A DNA stretch of 32,000 nt, taken from positions 1-32,000 of the forward strand of contig JAPZAR010000011.1 in assembly GCA_027460535.1 (NCBI GenBank). Direction: 5' to 3'. This DNA is from Candidatus Methanoperedens sp. Lineage in GTDB: Archaea > Halobacteriota > Methanosarcinia > Methanosarcinales > Methanoperedenaceae. The notes under the pieces are model-generated. The model was not told the DNA's origin and made no database searches. It worked only from the letters and a program-made list of their open reading frames with translations. Of the stretch, positions 1 through 8,330 are shown piece after piece. How positions within the stretch are numbered: position 1 is the first letter of the stretch; each line of letters opens with the position of its first letter. The translations under genes were made by a program, and so were the position numbers.

Positions 1-270
1 GAAAACCTGTAATACGTTCGATGCTTCTAATACCATTTTTTTCAACAAGATGTTTGCAAATCTGGATTATGTCTTTTCTGGATAGATGTTTATGATATAG
101 TGGTGTATTTGCTGTTTCAACAAACCAGGTACGGCAGTGATTGCAATAATACTGCTGATGCCCTGCTCGATTTTTTCCACGTTTCAGTATGTCCTTTCCT
201 TCTTCCTTTGAGAAATATTTGCAATCTGGATTCTGACATGTAATGTCGATTTTTCCTCTAGGTCTAGCCA
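1..270 (-). CDS. IS1-family-like transposase, N-terminal part (gene continues past the left edge)
   Basis: My own minus-strand translation from the ATG at 270 gives MARPRGKIDITCQNPDCKYFSKEEGKDILKRGKNRAGHQQYYCNHCRTWFVETANTPLYHKHLSRKDIIQICKHLVEKNGIRSIERITGF. It has a CxxC...CxxC zinc finger followed by an HTH-like segment, as in InsA/COG3677-type transposase N-termini. It is absent from the ORF track because no stop falls inside the window. Confidence 0.5.
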
Positions 271-296
271 TTAATACCACATTGTATTAATGGATT

Positions 297-956
297 TTAT
301 ACCATATATATTATGCGGTCTATTTCAGGACAATACCAAAGTTTTGTTCTCTGACCAGATCTATGAAGGTCAAGAAGCCTCCCGAGTCCTTTTGTCACAT
401 CGGTCGTATGCTCAACTTCAAAAGCAAATTCTGGCACAAGCATATCAGTATCCCCGCCAAACCATAAAACGTCTATATGGCTCACTATTTCTACAACCTT
501 CGGATGAAATACATCTCTTTGAAATTCTTTTATGGTTGCAACTTCTTCAATGGGCATGTTCATAAACTTCTTTTTGGCATCATTGATTGCCGCCGAGGTT
601 TCATAACCGTATATCTTCCCTAATTCAAGCAGCATCCCCTGAACATCTTCATGCGCCGGATTCGGGTTCTTCTTCGGGTCAAATTCTTGAAGAGGTTTTT
701 CTTCCCTGAGGTACCATATACCGCTCCCCTTCTCCTCCTGATAAAAAATGCTGTACTGCTGAAGCGTCCGCCTCACTGTATCCCTCCAGGTCGGATTTGT
801 CTCGGTTTTCCAGTGCCCCTCTATCTGCGAATTGATATCATCCAGATGTCCTGAATTGCCTATATTTGAGAGAGCTACTTTTACGACATCTTTCCATGTC
901 ACCTTGTTATCGCCCTTCATTTGAGGGCTAATATAAAATTCTTTGATCTTAACCAT
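297..956 (-). CDS. Winged-helix (HARE-HTH/Mrr_N-like) N-domain fused to a PD-(D/E)xK-like nuclease-fold domain; possibly 3'-truncated
   Basis: ORF track gives 297..974. I moved the start to MVKIKEFY because both paralogous fragments (4891, 6627) start there. The N-terminus fits a wHTH pattern: TWKDVV..AL...G..L.DINSQIEGHW...NPTWRDTVRRTLQQ..F...GSGIWYL. The C-terminus has HEDVQGMLLELGKIYGYE ... IDVLWF ... FEVEHTTDVTKGLGRLLDL, a restriction-endonuclease-like core motif recalled from memory. The ORF ends 27 bp from the IS1-like gene start. Confidence 0.55.
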   Translation of the reverse strand: MVKIKEFYISPQMKGDNKVTWKDVVKVALSNIGNSGHLDDINSQIEGHWKTETNPTWRDTVRRTLQQYSIFYQEEKGSGIWYLREEKPLQEFDPKKNPNPAHEDVQGMLLELGKIYGYETSAAINDAKKKFMNMPIEEVATIKEFQRDVFHPKVVEIVSHIDVLWFGGDTDMLVPEFAFEVEHTTDVTKGLGRLLDLHRSGQRTKLWYCPEIDRIIYMV

Positions 957-1003
957 TTCGAGTAATACTTGCATTGGGTTAAAAAACGCGGCGGCTTCGG
1001 GGA

Positions 1004-1056
1004 CGGCGCCGGATTTTTAATATTTGGATTGTAATAAATCTGCGGCGCTTTATACC
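1004..1056 (+). promoter_or_regulatory. Promoter-like unit P1, copy A: CGGCGCCGG box, TTTTTAATATTT, then GCGCTTTATACC about 28 nt downstream
   Basis: The same three-part unit recurs six times in the island. The AT box resembles an archaeal TATA box. It lies between the divergent wHTH gene and the palindrome cluster. Confidence 0.35.
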
Positions 1057-1153
1057 GCAGAGCACGCAAAGCACACAAAGCGAAAGCATCTTTACATCGG
1101 CAGCGCCGAACATTCTAAAAAATCTGGGTTTGTCGATATTTTACTCGTCTTGA

Positions 1154-1231
1154 CACGTATGGCGAAGCCATACGTGAATGCGCCCTCCAGAGGCGTGACT
1201 CTGGGCGCCTTCATCTGCGGTTTTTTATTTT
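1154..1231. repeat. Palindrome cluster, copy A (short form), ending in a T-run
   Basis: Contains cacgtatggc-gaa-gccatacgtg (1154-1176), cgcc-ctccaga-ggcg, and then ctgcggTTTTTTATTTT (1221-1231). Confidence 0.7.
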
Positions 1232-1422
1232 CAAAAGGCCGAGCCATCAGAGTGGATTTTTATTCCTGCAATTATCCCATTTCTTGCATTTCGACCCTCC
1301 CTCCCTTCTGCTATCCCCGACCTTCACTATCCACGCAGCCACGCGCAACGGGAACGCCCCCCTTCTCAGAGAAATAACAGCGCCGTTTGAATAAAGCGAG
1401 GATGGTTATACGGGGAACATAT

Positions 1423-1475
1423 CGGCGCCGGGGGATTAATATTTTAAGAGTGATAATTGTGTCGCGCTTTACACC
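1423..1475 (+). promoter_or_regulatory. Promoter-like unit P2 (module R2), copy A, upstream of DUF433/DUF5615
   Basis: Sequence is cggcgccggggGATTAATATTTTAAgagtgataattgtgtcGCGCTTTACACC. It lies about 90-120 nt upstream of the DUF433 ATG at 1564. The same unit precedes the second DUF433 gene at 7208-7262. Confidence 0.4.
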
Positions 1476-1563
1476 CCAAAGGACGCAAAGTAAGAGTCTC
1501 CATGTTCTTATGCACCTGATTTTCACGAAAAGTATAATACCCTCAATACCTACTATTACAGAG

Positions 1564-1794
1564 ATGGAAGAAAGAATAGTCGTAAATCCAAAAATAATGG
1601 TTGGGAAGCCTATTATTAAAGGAACGAGAATTCCTGTGGATGCCATATTGAGAAGGCTGGCAGATGGAATGAGTATAAAAGATATACTCGAAGAATATCC
1701 AAATCTCAAAGAAGAGGATATAAGGGCTGCTCTCAGGTACGTTTCAGAAGTGGTAGCCGGAGAACAAATAATCCCTATTGTGGAGACGGTTTGA
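1564..1794 (+). CDS. DUF433 family protein (putative antitoxin)
   Basis: Internal ATG of ORF 1387..1794. The upstream part of that ORF lies in non-coding repeat R2. MEERIVVNPKIMVGKPIIKGTRIPVDAILRRLADGMSIKDILEEYPNLKEEDIRAALRY matches the DUF433 signature. Its stop overlaps the next gene's TTG start (TTGA). Confidence 0.85.
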   Translation: MEERIVVNPKIMVGKPIIKGTRIPVDAILRRLADGMSIKDILEEYPNLKEEDIRAALRYVSEVVAGEQIIPIVETV

Positions 1795-6627: not shown

Positions 6628-6670
6628 TTCGAGTAATACATTGGGTTAAAAAACGCGGCGGCTTCGGAAG

Positions 6671-6725
6671 CGGCGCCGGGTTTTAATATTTAAATGGTAA
6701 TAAATATGCTGCACCTTTGATGGAG
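6671..6725 (+). promoter_or_regulatory. Promoter-like unit P1, copy C
   Basis: Sequence is cggcgccgggTTTTAATATTTaaatggtaataaatatgcTGCACCTTTGATGG. Confidence 0.3.
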
Positions 6726-6797
6726 CACGGAGCGGACAAATGACAAGGATGCGCACAGATTCAAATTATCCTTAGAAATCCGTGCTCATCGTCGCAG

Positions 6798-7016
6798 TAA
6801 ATCTGCGTTCATCATGCCGAAACCCTGCGGGTTCTCGACTCCGCGCTCACGTATGCCTGCGGGCATACGTCAAGGGTTGCGCCCCTTGAGGACGCCCGTC
6901 CACGTATGCCAGTGCGCTGGCATACGTGTGCACGCAATCGACTGGCGTGACAGTCGACGTGGACACGCCCTCCAGAGGCGTGACTCTGGGCGCTTTCATC
7001 TGCGGTTTGTAATTTT
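6798..7016. repeat. Palindrome cluster, copy C
   Basis: Contains acgtatgcc-tgcg-ggcatacgt (6849-6870), caaggg-ttgcgc-cccttg (6871-6888), cacgtatgccag-tgcg-ctggcatacgtg (6901-6928), tcgactg-gcgtga-cagtcga (6938-6957) and cacgcc-ctccaga-ggcgtg (6964-6982). It ends in a weaker T-rich run, ctgcggtttgtaatttt. Confidence 0.8.
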
Positions 7017-7207
7017 CATAAGGCAGAGCCCTTCAAAATTGTTGATTATTCCGACAACAATCCGATTTCTTGAATTTCGACCCTTCCTCCCTTCCACTAT
7101 CCCCGACCTTCACTATCCACGCAGCCACGCGCAACGGCAGCGCCCCCTTCATAGAAAAAGACCAGCGCCGTTTGAATAAGGCATGGATTGTTGTTCGGGG
7201 AACATAT

Positions 7208-7262
7208 GGGCGCCGGGGAATTAATATTTTAAGAGTGATAATTATATGGCGCTTTATACCGC
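7208..7262 (+). promoter_or_regulatory. Promoter-like unit P2 (module R2), copy C, upstream of the second DUF433/DUF5615 pair
   Basis: Sequence is gggcgccggggaATTAATATTTTAAgagtgataattatatgGCGCTTTATACC. Confidence 0.4.
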
Positions 7263-7365
7263 AAGGCACGTAAAGAGGACAAAGCGAAGGTTTCTATCTA
7301 TATCTGTCCACAGTTAGTACCAAGACTTTTATACACAATCAGGATGATTGTATAGATTGATTATC

Positions 7366-7614
7366 ATGCAAAAAGAAATTTTCAAGCGGATCGTATGCGA
7401 TCCCGATATTCTAGGTGGAAAACCTGTTATAAAAGGAACCAGGATATCTGTTGAGCTCCTGTTAGAACTGCTGGCGAACAACTGGACTCATGAAGAGATA
7501 ATGGAAAATTATCCGTATATCAAAAAAGAAGACATCCTAGCAGCTCTAGAGTATTCACTATCGCTCCTGAAGGAAGAGCATATTTACATAATTCCGCAAA
7601 AGGCTATCGCTTGA
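7366..7614 (+). CDS. DUF433 family protein (second copy)
   Basis: Internal ATG of ORF 7348..7614 (MQKEIFKRIVCDPDILGGKPVIKGTRISVELLLELLANNWTHEEIMENYPYIKKEDILAALEY). Its stop overlaps a TTG, as in the first pair. Confidence 0.85.
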   Translation: MQKEIFKRIVCDPDILGGKPVIKGTRISVELLLELLANNWTHEEIMENYPYIKKEDILAALEYSLSLLKEEHIYIIPQKAIA

Positions 7615-7987
7615 ACAATTCACCCACCTTTCTGGCTGATGAGAATATCCCCTTATCCTAATTAAACAACTCCGAAAGGAAGGATGTAAGATAGTATCAG
7701 TTATGGAAGATTTCACAGGCTCAAGCGATGAAAAGTTGTTAGAATTATCTTCAAGAAATAATTGGATAATAATTACATTCGATAAAGATTTTGGAGAATT
7801 GATTTATAAAAAGAAATCTAACAAACCGCATGGGATAATTCTTTTACGAGTAACTCCAAAATCGCTAAAATATATATTGCAACTATTAAAATGGCTTTTA
7901 TTACAAGCAAATATCTCATTTGAAGGATATTTTGTGGTTGTGAACAAAGACAAAGTAAGAGCTATAAAAATGGATGATTTTAAATAA
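7611..7987 (+). pseudogene. DUF5615 family gene with a frameshift near 7650
   Basis: The TTG at 7611 gives (M)NNSPTFLADENIP and stops at 7659-7661. The rest, LILIKQLRKEGCKIVSVMEDF...ITFDKDFGEL, is in the -1 frame relative to the 7611 start (ORF track lists only 7703..7987). The junction is at the C-run atCCCCtta. Confidence 0.7.
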
Positions 7988-8330
7988 TTAAGAGTGATAA
8001 ATGCTCCTCGCTTTACACCGAAAAGTCCTTACGTAACTTTTTAATTCCATGGCATTTGTGATAAACAGGATTGTACAGATGGCACGGGAACGCTAGAATT
8101 TTGATTATCCGTGGAAATCCGTCAAATCCGTGTCATCCGTGCTCATCGTCGCAGTAAATCTGCGTTCATCGGCGTCATGCCCGCTGCAATGCATAGACAC
8201 GTATCAAGGGTTGCGCCCCTTGAGGACGCAGACACGTATTGCGAAGCAATACGTGGATACGCAATCGACTGACGTGACAGTCGACGTGGACACGCCCTCC
8301 AGAGGCGTGACTCTGGGCGCCTTAATCTGA
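7985..8330. repeat. Composite island repeat, part-copy D (partial R2, iteron-like repeats, palindrome cluster, first bases of R1)
   Basis: taattaagagtgataaatgctcctcgctttacacc aligns to R2. 8107-8330 aligns to the clusters in copies B and C. It ends inside the 3' end of the 8322..9287 gene. Confidence 0.8.
8156..8330. repeat. Palindrome cluster, copy D
   Basis: Contains caaggg-ttgcgc-cccttg (8205-8222), cacgtattgc-gaa-gcaatacgtg (8233-8255), tcgactg-acgtga-cagtcga (8265-8284) and cacgcc-ctccaga-ggcgtg (8291-8309). Confidence 0.8.

Follow-up and report, generated by a model that had tools for sequence, protein, structure and literature searches.

Neisserial intergenic mosaic elements (NIMEs), Correia elements and minimal mobile elements are mosaic intergenic repeats of Neisseria, with cassettes exchanged by homologous recombination in conserved flanks and without a dedicated recombinase. 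In the orphan cassette arrays of rearrangement hotspot (Rhs) and contact-dependent inhibition (CDI) systems, the conserved fragment is a 3′ core fused in frame to a variable toxin tip. Repetitive extragenic palindromic (REP) elements are known targets of IS110-family insertion sequence (IS) elements. Methanoperedens archaea, which drive anaerobic methane oxidation, are hosts of unusually large extrachromosomal elements. REP elements and bacterial interspersed mosaic elements (BIMEs) have been described in Gammaproteobacteria (PMC2817692, PMC3733652, PMC3116915), where REP palindromes carry a conserved GTAG or CGTC tetranucleotide at one end (PMC3733652); NIMEs are mentioned in PMC3184786, and R.NmeDI is a characterised Type II restriction enzyme (PMC2095814). 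In the literature that we searched, we found no description of Methanoperedens repeat families or of turnover in their defence and toxin-antitoxin (TA) islands. Here we analyse a 32,000-nt stretch of Candidatus Methanoperedens sp. DNA (contig JAPZAR010000011.1 of assembly GCA_027460535.1, positions 1 to 32,000, forward strand; hereafter the window), at the left end of which small gene cassettes alternate with copies of a composite repeat. The explanation that we favour, with moderate confidence, is that homologous recombination among direct repeats has shaped a TA and restriction-modification island into which REP/BIME-like hairpin elements have been inserted.

Results

Anatomy of the composite repeat

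A preliminary description of the window, made from sequence alone, had read its first 8,330 nt as an accessory island in which small cassettes are separated by one recurring, modular repeat. This observation is borne out. Self-BLASTN of the whole window and a repeat search confined the repeat family to 665-8356 and placed five copies or part-copies at 665-1508, 2146-2442, 4656-5423, 6333-7295 and 7984-8332, within ~60 nt of the positions first given. Pairwise identity among the copies is 71-94% over 270-790 nt (E-values 1e-26 to 0), and the repeats make up ~3.2 of the 8.36 kb of the island (~39%). The only other repeat that self-BLASTN returned is one weak, unrelated pair, 17081-17288 and 18084-18261.

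Modules follow a fixed order in the copies, as had been described: the 5′ 236-290 nt of a minus-strand gene, the promoter-like unit P1, a palindrome cluster with a terminal T-run, spacer R1, and R2 with a second promoter-like unit, P2. R2/P2 is missing after 5420 (~5400 in the earlier account), the cluster is collapsed at 2146-2173, and the motif ATCTGCG stands at both edges of the cluster; additional partial P units lie at 3907-3965 and 7984-8028. The composite comprises four layers: 5′ stubs of an NmeDI-like restriction endonuclease gene with their native promoter, a module P, a hairpin element that we call HP, and the spacer R1. Coordinates of all features are given in Table 1.

The window matches contig JAPZAT010000002.1 (assembly GCA_027460495.1; L054 in the L numbers that we use for loci) except for a 174-bp deletion at window 3341. 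Among homologues of the window genes, the closest bear the name Candidatus Methanoperedens. All assemblies with this locus represent one strain, and several public ones end ~28 nt past the Hydantoinase_A-family gene at the right border. On its right side the island is followed by housekeeping genes (Hydantoinase_A, NIF3, ELP3, thermosome, SecDF, CarS, sulfate activation) and one tRNA-Thr. We take the island to be chromosomal because of these neighbours; that it is a chromosomal accessory island of TA and restriction-modification genes in Candidatus Methanoperedens forms part of our best explanation, which as a whole we regard as somewhat favoured.

The repeats had no Rfam match, with the whole window searched at gathering thresholds and 6600-7400 at E<=5; only the tRNA-Thr and chance miRNA-like matches were returned. 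Readings of the repeat as a C/D-box small RNA or as attC were considered on sequence and dropped. A promoter and terminator scan with bacterial signals gave counts not above those of shuffles and was left unused.

Restriction-gene stubs and related islands

The gene whose 5′ part recurs in the repeat had been called a winged helix-turn-helix (wHTH) nuclease. It has 205 homologues of ~250 aa, most of them (in the test of family membership, most of 120) with a precomputed match to PF27126 (NmeDI_C), as has the window gene as called in L054 (18545-19168). The 5′ pieces with P1 are truncated paralogues of this NmeDI-like restriction endonuclease gene, each accompanied by the promoter region that belongs to the gene. 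Homology to the region upstream of the intact gene in L051 and L053 extends to window 1052, which identifies the proximal part of P1 as sequence native to the upstream side of the NmeDI-like gene itself.

In the window, each of the three copies is either disrupted or truncated. Copy 1 is not intact but a near full-length gene split by an IS1-family element; its remainder lies ~1.07 kb further left in L054, where, past the IS1 element, the 3′ end of copy 1 and a BglII-like endonuclease gene occur in the same neighbourhood as in L061. An intact Methanoperedens homologue, in L051, is followed by an N6_N4 methyltransferase gene; no methyltransferase adjoins the gene in the window. Across the family, the acidic residues D162, E180 and E182 are invariant (D...ExE). 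An AlphaFold model (pLDDT 88) comprises an N-terminal domain, which matches a winged helix with probability 1.0, and a second, nuclease-like domain, whose top match in the Protein Data Bank (PDB), BsaWI, is weak (E=0.011, TM 0.31). A PDB sequence search with a full-length homologue returned no match, and neither did an exact look-up of the 225-aa window protein, because gene callers choose a different start.

Through truncated NmeDI homologues, we found islands of the same grammar, [P][NmeDI 5′ part][TA cassette], in three Methanoperedens contigs (L049, L060 and L061). Their repeats are all direct: the P modules all share one strand, and the NmeDI parts all lie on the opposite one. The NmeDI 5′ part that P faces varies in length and is followed by a TA cassette on the NmeDI strand; P also precedes DUF433/DUF5615. 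The flanking genes differ among the islands, which therefore occupy different loci. Cassette set and order differ as well (PIN, PIN_2, DUF5678, HicAB, DUF433/DUF5615, an aspartic-protease-like pair, BglII with methyltransferases), so that the comparison with related genomes suggested in the preliminary description does reveal varying cassette order and content between the same repeats.

Homology to the intact NmeDI gene stops at nt 397, 447, 536, 541, 587, 710, 725, 739, 904 and 962 in different copies. These ten end points indicate that joining was not site-specific and rule out a fixed recombination site in the gene. The aspartic-protease-like block has the same edges in the window, L060 and L061, and its junction with NmeDI nt ~236-255 is identical in position in the window and L061. 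Despite this shared junction, the L061 stub matches the other L061 stubs at 98% identity and the window stub at 81%, and in the cassette next to it the two genomes share 82% identity. In their first 232 nt, copies of the gene show 92-96% identity within each of four genomes and 74-88% between genomes. These identities indicate repeated gene conversion, that is, homologous recombination among direct repeats, and the stubs evolve in concert within genomes. They are free of frameshifts and stops despite divergence of up to 13%. An empty-site test via Hydantoinase_A orthologues was dropped, as the relatives share at most 76% identity and have no synteny on either side.

The hairpin element HP

HP is a discrete, genus-wide interspersed element, similar to REP/BIME elements or to miniature inverted-repeat transposable elements (MITEs). 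The preliminary description had explained the variable palindrome cluster by recombination at ATCTGCG motifs within the island. This did not hold: the motifs are the fixed termini of a discrete element that recurs in unrelated loci, at least 48 in number. A 26-mer taken from the cluster has exact matches at 48 loci, nearly all in Methanoperedens or Methanoperedenaceae metagenome-assembled genomes and many at contig ends. In aligned copies the ends are invariant (ATCTGCGTTYATC...YTTYATCTGCGG), and the canonical element measures 115-118 nt, with termini that are direct repeats, ATCTGCG on the left and ATCTGCGG on the right. The flanks are unrelated between copies right up to these ends. In shorter forms (55 and 82 nt) and longer ones (175-207 nt), whole hairpins have been lost or gained. 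Nor are the three long window copies particular to this island, since the L042 and L037 variants (95% and 93% identical) have the same ends in foreign contexts. Unbiased Methanoperedens DNA contains 1.3-3.5 HP copies per 100 kb, compared with five copies in this 8.3-kb island. In HP-E the right end (8322-8332) is mutated to TTAATCTGAGG and provides the Hydantoinase_A-family gene with its TAA stop and the three codons before it. The ATCCGTG motif to the left of HP-E also lies left of HP in L002, L009, L011, L022 and L039.

One HP copy lies on a 2.4-kb contig, CAZNCO010000756.1 (L038), binned as 'uncultured Ohtaekwangia sp.' (Bacteroidota). As HP is otherwise strictly limited to Methanoperedens, this contig has probably been mis-binned.

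An ordinary MITE was the outcome that the preliminary description had set against its own reading of the repeat. Of the marks of such an element, fixed ends and genome-wide occurrence are present in HP; terminal inverted repeats are absent from the aligned canonical copies, with inverted ends in the L014 copy alone (AACCGCAGAT...ATCTGCGGTT), and no target-site duplication was seen. A candidate duplication, TTYATC on both sides, was rejected, since the two sides do not co-vary within copies. Protein coding was likewise rejected: both strands are open, the plus strand from a conserved ATG, but the peptide changes wholly between variants of hairpin H2 in which the stem is kept. In the Methanoperedens loci examined we found no parent element with tnpA or tnpB and HP ends, and tblastn with an IS608 TnpA probe for Y1 HUH transposases, the class of the REP-associated RAYT enzymes, gave 0 matches across the window and ~450 kb of Methanoperedens loci.

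Four pairs in the middle hairpin show compensatory double changes, while the outer hairpins are invariant. HP folds better than its shuffled counterparts on both strands (z = -4.2 and -3.3), and at orthologous sites across species it is more conserved than its flanks, for example 86% versus 57-64%. HP copies are intergenic and often lie 4-125 nt from a stop codon. Of the genes that lie no more than 400 nt from the right end, 20 are convergent and 10 co-directional, again often at a distance of 4-125 nt. Most copies are followed by a T-rich tract, GGTTYnnnTTTTCAA, with a run of at least four T in 27 of 43. Together with its T-run, HP probably serves as a transcription terminator, insulator or 3′-end stabiliser between selfish cassettes.

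The extra hairpin of the long variants, TCGACTG-GCGTGA-CAGTCGA (6940-6962; also in HP-E), shares its GCGTGA loop with the invariant H3, CCAGAG-GCGTGA-CTCTGG (6962-6996), and differs from it in the stem. The loop, and not the stem sequence, may be the recognised part of HP.

Module P and spacer R1

Module P has the consensus ...GGTTGCTTCGGGAACATATC GGCGCCGGGGAATTAATATTTAAAGAGTGATAAATATnnGGCGC TTTACACCGCAAAG(nnCGCAAAG)2-3 and includes TTTAAATA-like and TTTAYACC boxes. These boxes would be in keeping with P being an archaeal promoter, in one or both directions. In ~400 kb of Methanoperedens DNA, nhmmer found 36 matches to P, and its density in NmeDI-type islands, where it is concentrated, is 32 per 100 kb. 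Neither P nor HP occurred in 715 kb of other archaeal loci or in the viral contigs scanned. The motif of the partial P tail at 3907-3965 also follows the aspartic-protease-like cassette in L060 and L061.

The tail of P has a period of 9 at 1056-1081 (TRF). More generally, direct repeats phased at ~9-10 bp fall into three families: CGCAAAGnn in the P tail, ATCCGTGnn to the left of HP and partly inverted, and ATCTGCGnnn at the HP ends. They occur at 1056-1081, 5020-5060, 6750-6790 and 8107-8147 of the window and in L051 and L060; the latter two loci have three tandem ATCTGCG units, with the hairpins between them absent. Their spacing of one helical turn suggests arrays of protein-binding sites.

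R1 is essentially restricted to the island: nhmmer with the four copies returned the window and one weak match in L015. Each copy has a hairpin (1250-1275, 2203-2229, 5283-5308 and 7037-7062) with a T-run after it, and the stem co-varies among the four copies (GGAT/ATCC, GGTTG/CAACC, TTGTTG/CAACAA). The minus strand of R1 is G-rich (GGGG...GGGAGGGAGGG), a possible G-quadruplex motif.

Cassettes, IS elements and a second TA locus

Pfam searches recovered the gene modules that had been named from the sequence: DUF433/DUF5615 twice, HicB/HicA, an aspartic-protease-like protein with a 78-aa partner, and a 72-aa open reading frame (ORF). Known TA families are represented by the two pairs of DUF433 with DUF5615/PIN-like genes and by HicB with HicA; the aspartic-protease-like pair and the 72-aa gene matched no known TA family in Pfam and NCBIfam/TIGR searches. 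In L049 and L061 a PIN_2 toxin gene comes directly after the 72-aa gene, which is partnerless here and looks like an orphan antitoxin-like gene. In cassette D, the DUF5615 gene is frameshifted between 'LADENIP' and 'LILIKQLRKEG', and the Pfam match spans profile positions 33-109 only. The proteins of cassettes A and D are 48% and 38% identical in amino acids, compared with 83-90% identity for the R1/P2 DNA upstream, a contrast in keeping with homologous recombination among the repeats. Cassettes lie on both strands as blocks with reproducible edges, each running from its own promoter region to a stop codon, and an AT-rich, TATA-like box occurs 25-45 nt upstream of each cassette's start codon.

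The IS110-family element is bordered by a P module (2374-2442), similar only as far as its first CAAAG repeat, and by the partial P tail, and may have inserted into a P module, much as IS110 elements do with REP-type repeats. The deletion that sets the window apart from L054 removes 174 bp of its transposase gene (L054 15950-16123) in frame, leaving an ORF of 353 aa compared with 412 aa in L054. No second copy of this element was found in the loci searched.

At an unrelated locus in the window, an MNT/HepT TA pair (17447-18068) lies between a DUF2254 gene (16378-17358, minus strand) and a decayed, frameshifted copy of the 5′ part of that gene (aa 28-93) at ~18083-18249. The grammar of this locus, gene 5′ fragment - TA cassette - gene, is that of the island.

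Table 1. Features of the island and its borders (window coordinates)
Feature	Position	Strand	Evidence
IS1-family transposase, N-terminal part; the IS splits NmeDI copy 1	2-271	-	NCBIfam NF033558/NF050000, Pfam InsA zinc ribbon
NmeDI-like gene copy 1, nt 1-630 of ~789; ORF end formed by IS-derived codons	297-974	-	PF27126, homologues
P1-A, module P: GGCGCC boxes around an AT-rich TATA-like core, then TTTATACC and CGCAAAG 9-mer repeats	975-1090	+	nhmmer E=2e-22
HP-A, short variant with hairpins H2 and H3; T-run at 1221-1234	1121-1220	+	L025 copy of same architecture
R1-A (R1 and start of R2 of the preliminary description), island-specific spacer; opens with co-varying hairpin and T-run	1227-1423	+	nhmmer
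P2-A, module P	1424-1508	+	nhmmer E=7e-24
Cassette A: DUF433 (1564-1794), DUF5615/PIN-like (1791-2141)	1564-2141	+	Pfam E=4e-26, 3e-21
HP-B, collapsed, 28 nt; both ATCTGCG ends retained, every hairpin deleted	2146-2173	+	comparison with full copies
R1-B	2180-2373	+	nhmmer
P-B, module P; similarity ends past first CAAAG repeat	2374-2442	+	nhmmer E=5e-20
IS110-family element, ends approximate; transposase 2669-3730	2443-3906	+	Pfam DEDD_Tnp_IS110, Transposase_20
Partial P tail (CATACCAGCACGCAAGGAGCGCAAAG)	3907-3965	+	BLASTN to P tail of L025
Cassette: 78-aa protein (4369-4605), 121-aa aspartic-protease-like protein (3999-4364), own promoter region	3991-4646	-	weak Pfam/TIGR03698 matches
NmeDI-like 5′ stub c2, nt 1-236, wHTH ORF intact; junction common to L061	4656-4891	-	
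P1-C, module P, first half only	4930-4986	+	repeat search, profile search
HP-C, 182-nt long variant	5071-5252	+	93% identical copy in foreign context, L037
R1-C, truncated, without P2	5259-5420	+	nhmmer
Cassette: HicB (5518-5805), HicA (5753-5986)	5518-5986	+	Pfam UPF0150 1e-33, HicA_toxin 2e-10
72-aa gene	6059-6277	-	partner of PIN_2 toxin in other islands
NmeDI-like 5′ stub c3, nt 1-287	6333-6627	-	
P1-D, module P, first half	6661-6717	+	profile search
HP-D, 205-nt long variant	6801-7005	+	95% identical 207-nt copy with unrelated flanks, L042
R1-D	7012-7208	+	nhmmer
P2-D, module P	7209-7294	+	nhmmer E=3e-24
Cassette D: DUF433 (7366-7614), frameshifted DUF5615 (~7620-7987)	7366-7987	+	Pfam, tblastn
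Partial module P	7984-8028	+	nhmmer E=8e-6
ATCCGTG repeats phased ~9-10 bp, left of HP-E	8100-8157	+	TRF
HP-E, 175-nt long variant; right end overlaps last codons and stop of flanking gene	8158-8332	+	
Hydantoinase_A-family gene, housekeeping, right border of island	8322-9287	-	precomputed Pfam PF01968

Discussion

The observation made in the preliminary description is confirmed and its interpretation partly supported. Recombination rather than transposition, as it had proposed, best explains the composite as a whole, given the variable breakpoints in the nuclease gene and the concerted stubs within each genome. The process that we envisage would run as follows. In gene direction, a unit consists of P, an NmeDI-like 5′ part cut at a variable point and a TA cassette with its own putative proximal promoter; in a second type of unit, P is followed by DUF433/DUF5615. 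HP and the local spacer R1 lie between units. Cassettes would first have been joined to the nuclease gene by illegitimate, non-site-specific events. The repeats would then act as portable stretches of homology, not as attachment sites: units would be duplicated, lost and swapped through host homologous recombination between direct repeats, and gene conversion would homogenise the copies, with unequal crossing-over and the excision or re-integration of circles as possible parts of the process. HP would be a separate layer, copied as a discrete unit into intergenic DNA and gaining or losing single hairpins. Both the recombination pathway and the mode of HP spread are what we infer from these comparisons.

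Several observations weigh against this explanation. No recombination event was directly observed, every assembly of the locus being of one strain, and no autonomous partner for HP was found. The promoter and terminator roles rest on sequence resemblance. Concerted evolution is clear for the NmeDI stubs only, as P2/R2 paralogues (~85%) are barely closer to each other than orthologues are (~82%). The full-length NmeDI gene is not always the last unit, and a simple history of serial Campbell integration misfits some islands. In more distant relatives the orthologous gene lacks an island, but synteny is lost on both sides, which makes this a weak comparison. Lastly, the stub ORFs are intact, with dN/dS of 0.19-0.30, so the stubs could be functional winged-helix genes and not mere homology; gene conversion from intact copies can explain the same facts.

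An integron-like, site-specific system, in which a recombinase encoded outside the window acts at a conserved site such as P or ATCTGCG, would account for a layout like that of TA-rich superintegron arrays, for the uniformly direct repeats and for cassette-block edges that are reproducible in three genomes, and a tyrosine recombinase gene does lie ~4 kb from the L049 island. That recombinase, however, is XerA-like in size (278 aa) and domains, and housekeeping genes separate it from the island. The absence of an integrase and of attC-like cores noted in the preliminary description was upheld: no Phage_integrase match was found by Pfam among all island ORFs and 10 large ORFs of the rest of the 32-kb window, the L054 gene table lists no integrase in the island, 1.5 kb to its left or 10 kb to its right, and a crude regular-expression search with a complementarity requirement returned 0 attC-like R''/L''-L'/R' structures. 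The cassettes, in both orientations and with putative promoters of their own, abut different modules (NmeDI at many nt, the P tail, HP, R1), so the mapped edges have no common junction core. We consider such a system extremely improbable. Hardly better placed, and still very improbable, is a single non-autonomous mobile element, a large MITE or transposon end comprising the whole composite, inserted again and again among cassettes already in place. Two of its parts, HP and P, are scattered across the genus, HP has fixed ends and contigs often break at it; yet the dispersal is of sub-modules only, R1 being confined to this island and P, but not HP, being concentrated in NmeDI islands. On the left, the composite breaks off inside a gene, and does so at a different position in each copy. 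It has no terminal inverted repeats and, with TTYATC not co-varying around HP, gives no evidence of target-site duplication.

The island could also be a static fossil, in which a divergent [NmeDI <- P -> DUF433/DUF5615] locus underwent a single ancient tandem duplication and thereafter only decay, IS insertions and random deletions, with no ongoing exchange. Units A and D do look like duplicates of one divergent locus, and signs of decay are at hand in the IS1 and IS110 insertions, the frameshifted toxin, the orphan antitoxin-like gene and the truncated genes. A history of this kind is decidedly unlikely when stubs at an ancestral, shared junction are 98% identical to within-genome paralogues and 81% to each other, when no stub has acquired a frameshift or stop at divergence of up to 13%, and when cassette order differs among four genomes. 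Unlikely too, if less so, is retention of the repeat as functional RNA or regulatory DNA, with P driving a short structured transcript (a small RNA or attenuator) through HP to the T-run and wHTH stubs regulating through GGCGCC or the 9-10-bp phased repeats, one control unit per cassette. This possibility is compatible with the recombination model. P followed by an ATCTGCG block and T-run recurs in the same orientation in units A, C, D and E of the window and in L015, L025, L051/L053 and L060; compensatory changes in the H2 and R1 hairpins, the conservation of HP relative to its flanks at orthologous sites, the intact stub ORFs with their dN/dS of 0.19-0.30 and the three repeat families phased at one helical turn point the same way. 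Palindromes are complementary on both strands, however, and their covariation does not demonstrate RNA; no Rfam match was found, most dispersed HP copies lack an upstream P, and the low dN/dS may reflect inheritance from intact genes or gene conversion. We regard as rather unlikely a further reading, in which P and the NmeDI 5′ part form an integrase-free cassette-capture 'socket': circles, each with a TA cassette and one copy of this segment, would be excised and integrated by host homologous recombination in a functional analogue of an integron, the wHTH stubs would be regulators acting at P, and HP would represent a new archaeal family of hairpin transposons with direct-repeat ends. The DUF2254/MNT-HepT locus may follow the same socket rule.

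The stubs are a clear instance of concerted evolution in archaeal TA islands, and this pattern points to homologous recombination, and not to a dedicated recombinase, as the driver of cassette turnover. HP and P are genus-specific interspersed modules that break assemblies and might serve as markers or binning aids. The HP-T-run arrangement raises the testable idea of REP/BIME-like terminator or insulator elements in Archaea, and a socket, if true, would be an integrase-free route to cassette arrays.

Comparison with known systems

The preliminary description could not assign the locus to a described cassette system. This stands for the ensemble; each layer taken singly has a close known analogue. 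Like REP elements and BIMEs, HP consists of GC-rich extragenic palindromes in high copy (hairpins H1, H2 and H3), with conserved motifs in mosaic units of variable composition, often near the 3′ ends of genes, with co-varying stems and proposed roles in termination or mRNA stabilisation. Unlike them, it occurs in an archaeal host, its ends are invariant direct repeats (ATCTGCG), its hairpins keep one order in place of alternating REP orientations, and its copy density looks lower, at roughly 1-4 per 100 kb. When the aligned copies were inspected, no consistent GTAG or CGTC tag was seen next to H1-H3. With MITEs it shares small size (55-207 nt), non-coding, structured sequence, dispersal in many copies with discrete ends, occurrence of the same variant in unrelated contexts and the breaking of assemblies; canonical HP differs in having no terminal inverted repeats, no demonstrated target-site duplication and no parent IS found. 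Its hairpins and the lack of both inverted repeats and target-site duplications would fit palindrome-associated elements derived from IS200/IS605, for which no tnpA- or tnpB-bearing parent with HP ends was found in the loci examined.

The NmeDI-like gene has a C-terminal domain that matches NmeDI_C, an intact homologue that adjoins a methyltransferase, and the D...ExE residues, in line with R.NmeDI-type enzymes (PF27126). It differs in its length (~250 aa compared with 351 aa for R.NmeDI) and its N-terminal winged helix, and its nuclease activity is a prediction.

As an array, the island resembles TA-rich superintegrons in its small, mostly TA cassettes, its recurring, structured direct repeat and its variation in content between relatives. 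It departs from them in that no IntI, attI or attC was found, in that the cassettes have their own putative promoters and lie in either orientation, and in that the junctions are not at a conserved core and the repeat includes a gene fragment. Rhs/CDI arrays likewise have repeated fragments of one gene, each followed by a different toxin/immunity-type module, and recombination between the fragments; here an unrelated nuclease gene contributes its 5′ part as the fragment, and the cassettes are genes of their own. In being a mosaic of several small repeat families for which homologous recombination is proposed, the island is similar to the Neisseria mosaic and minimal mobile elements, though in another organism and with unrelated sequences, and here the segments of homology stand in tandem within one island and include the stub of a restriction gene.

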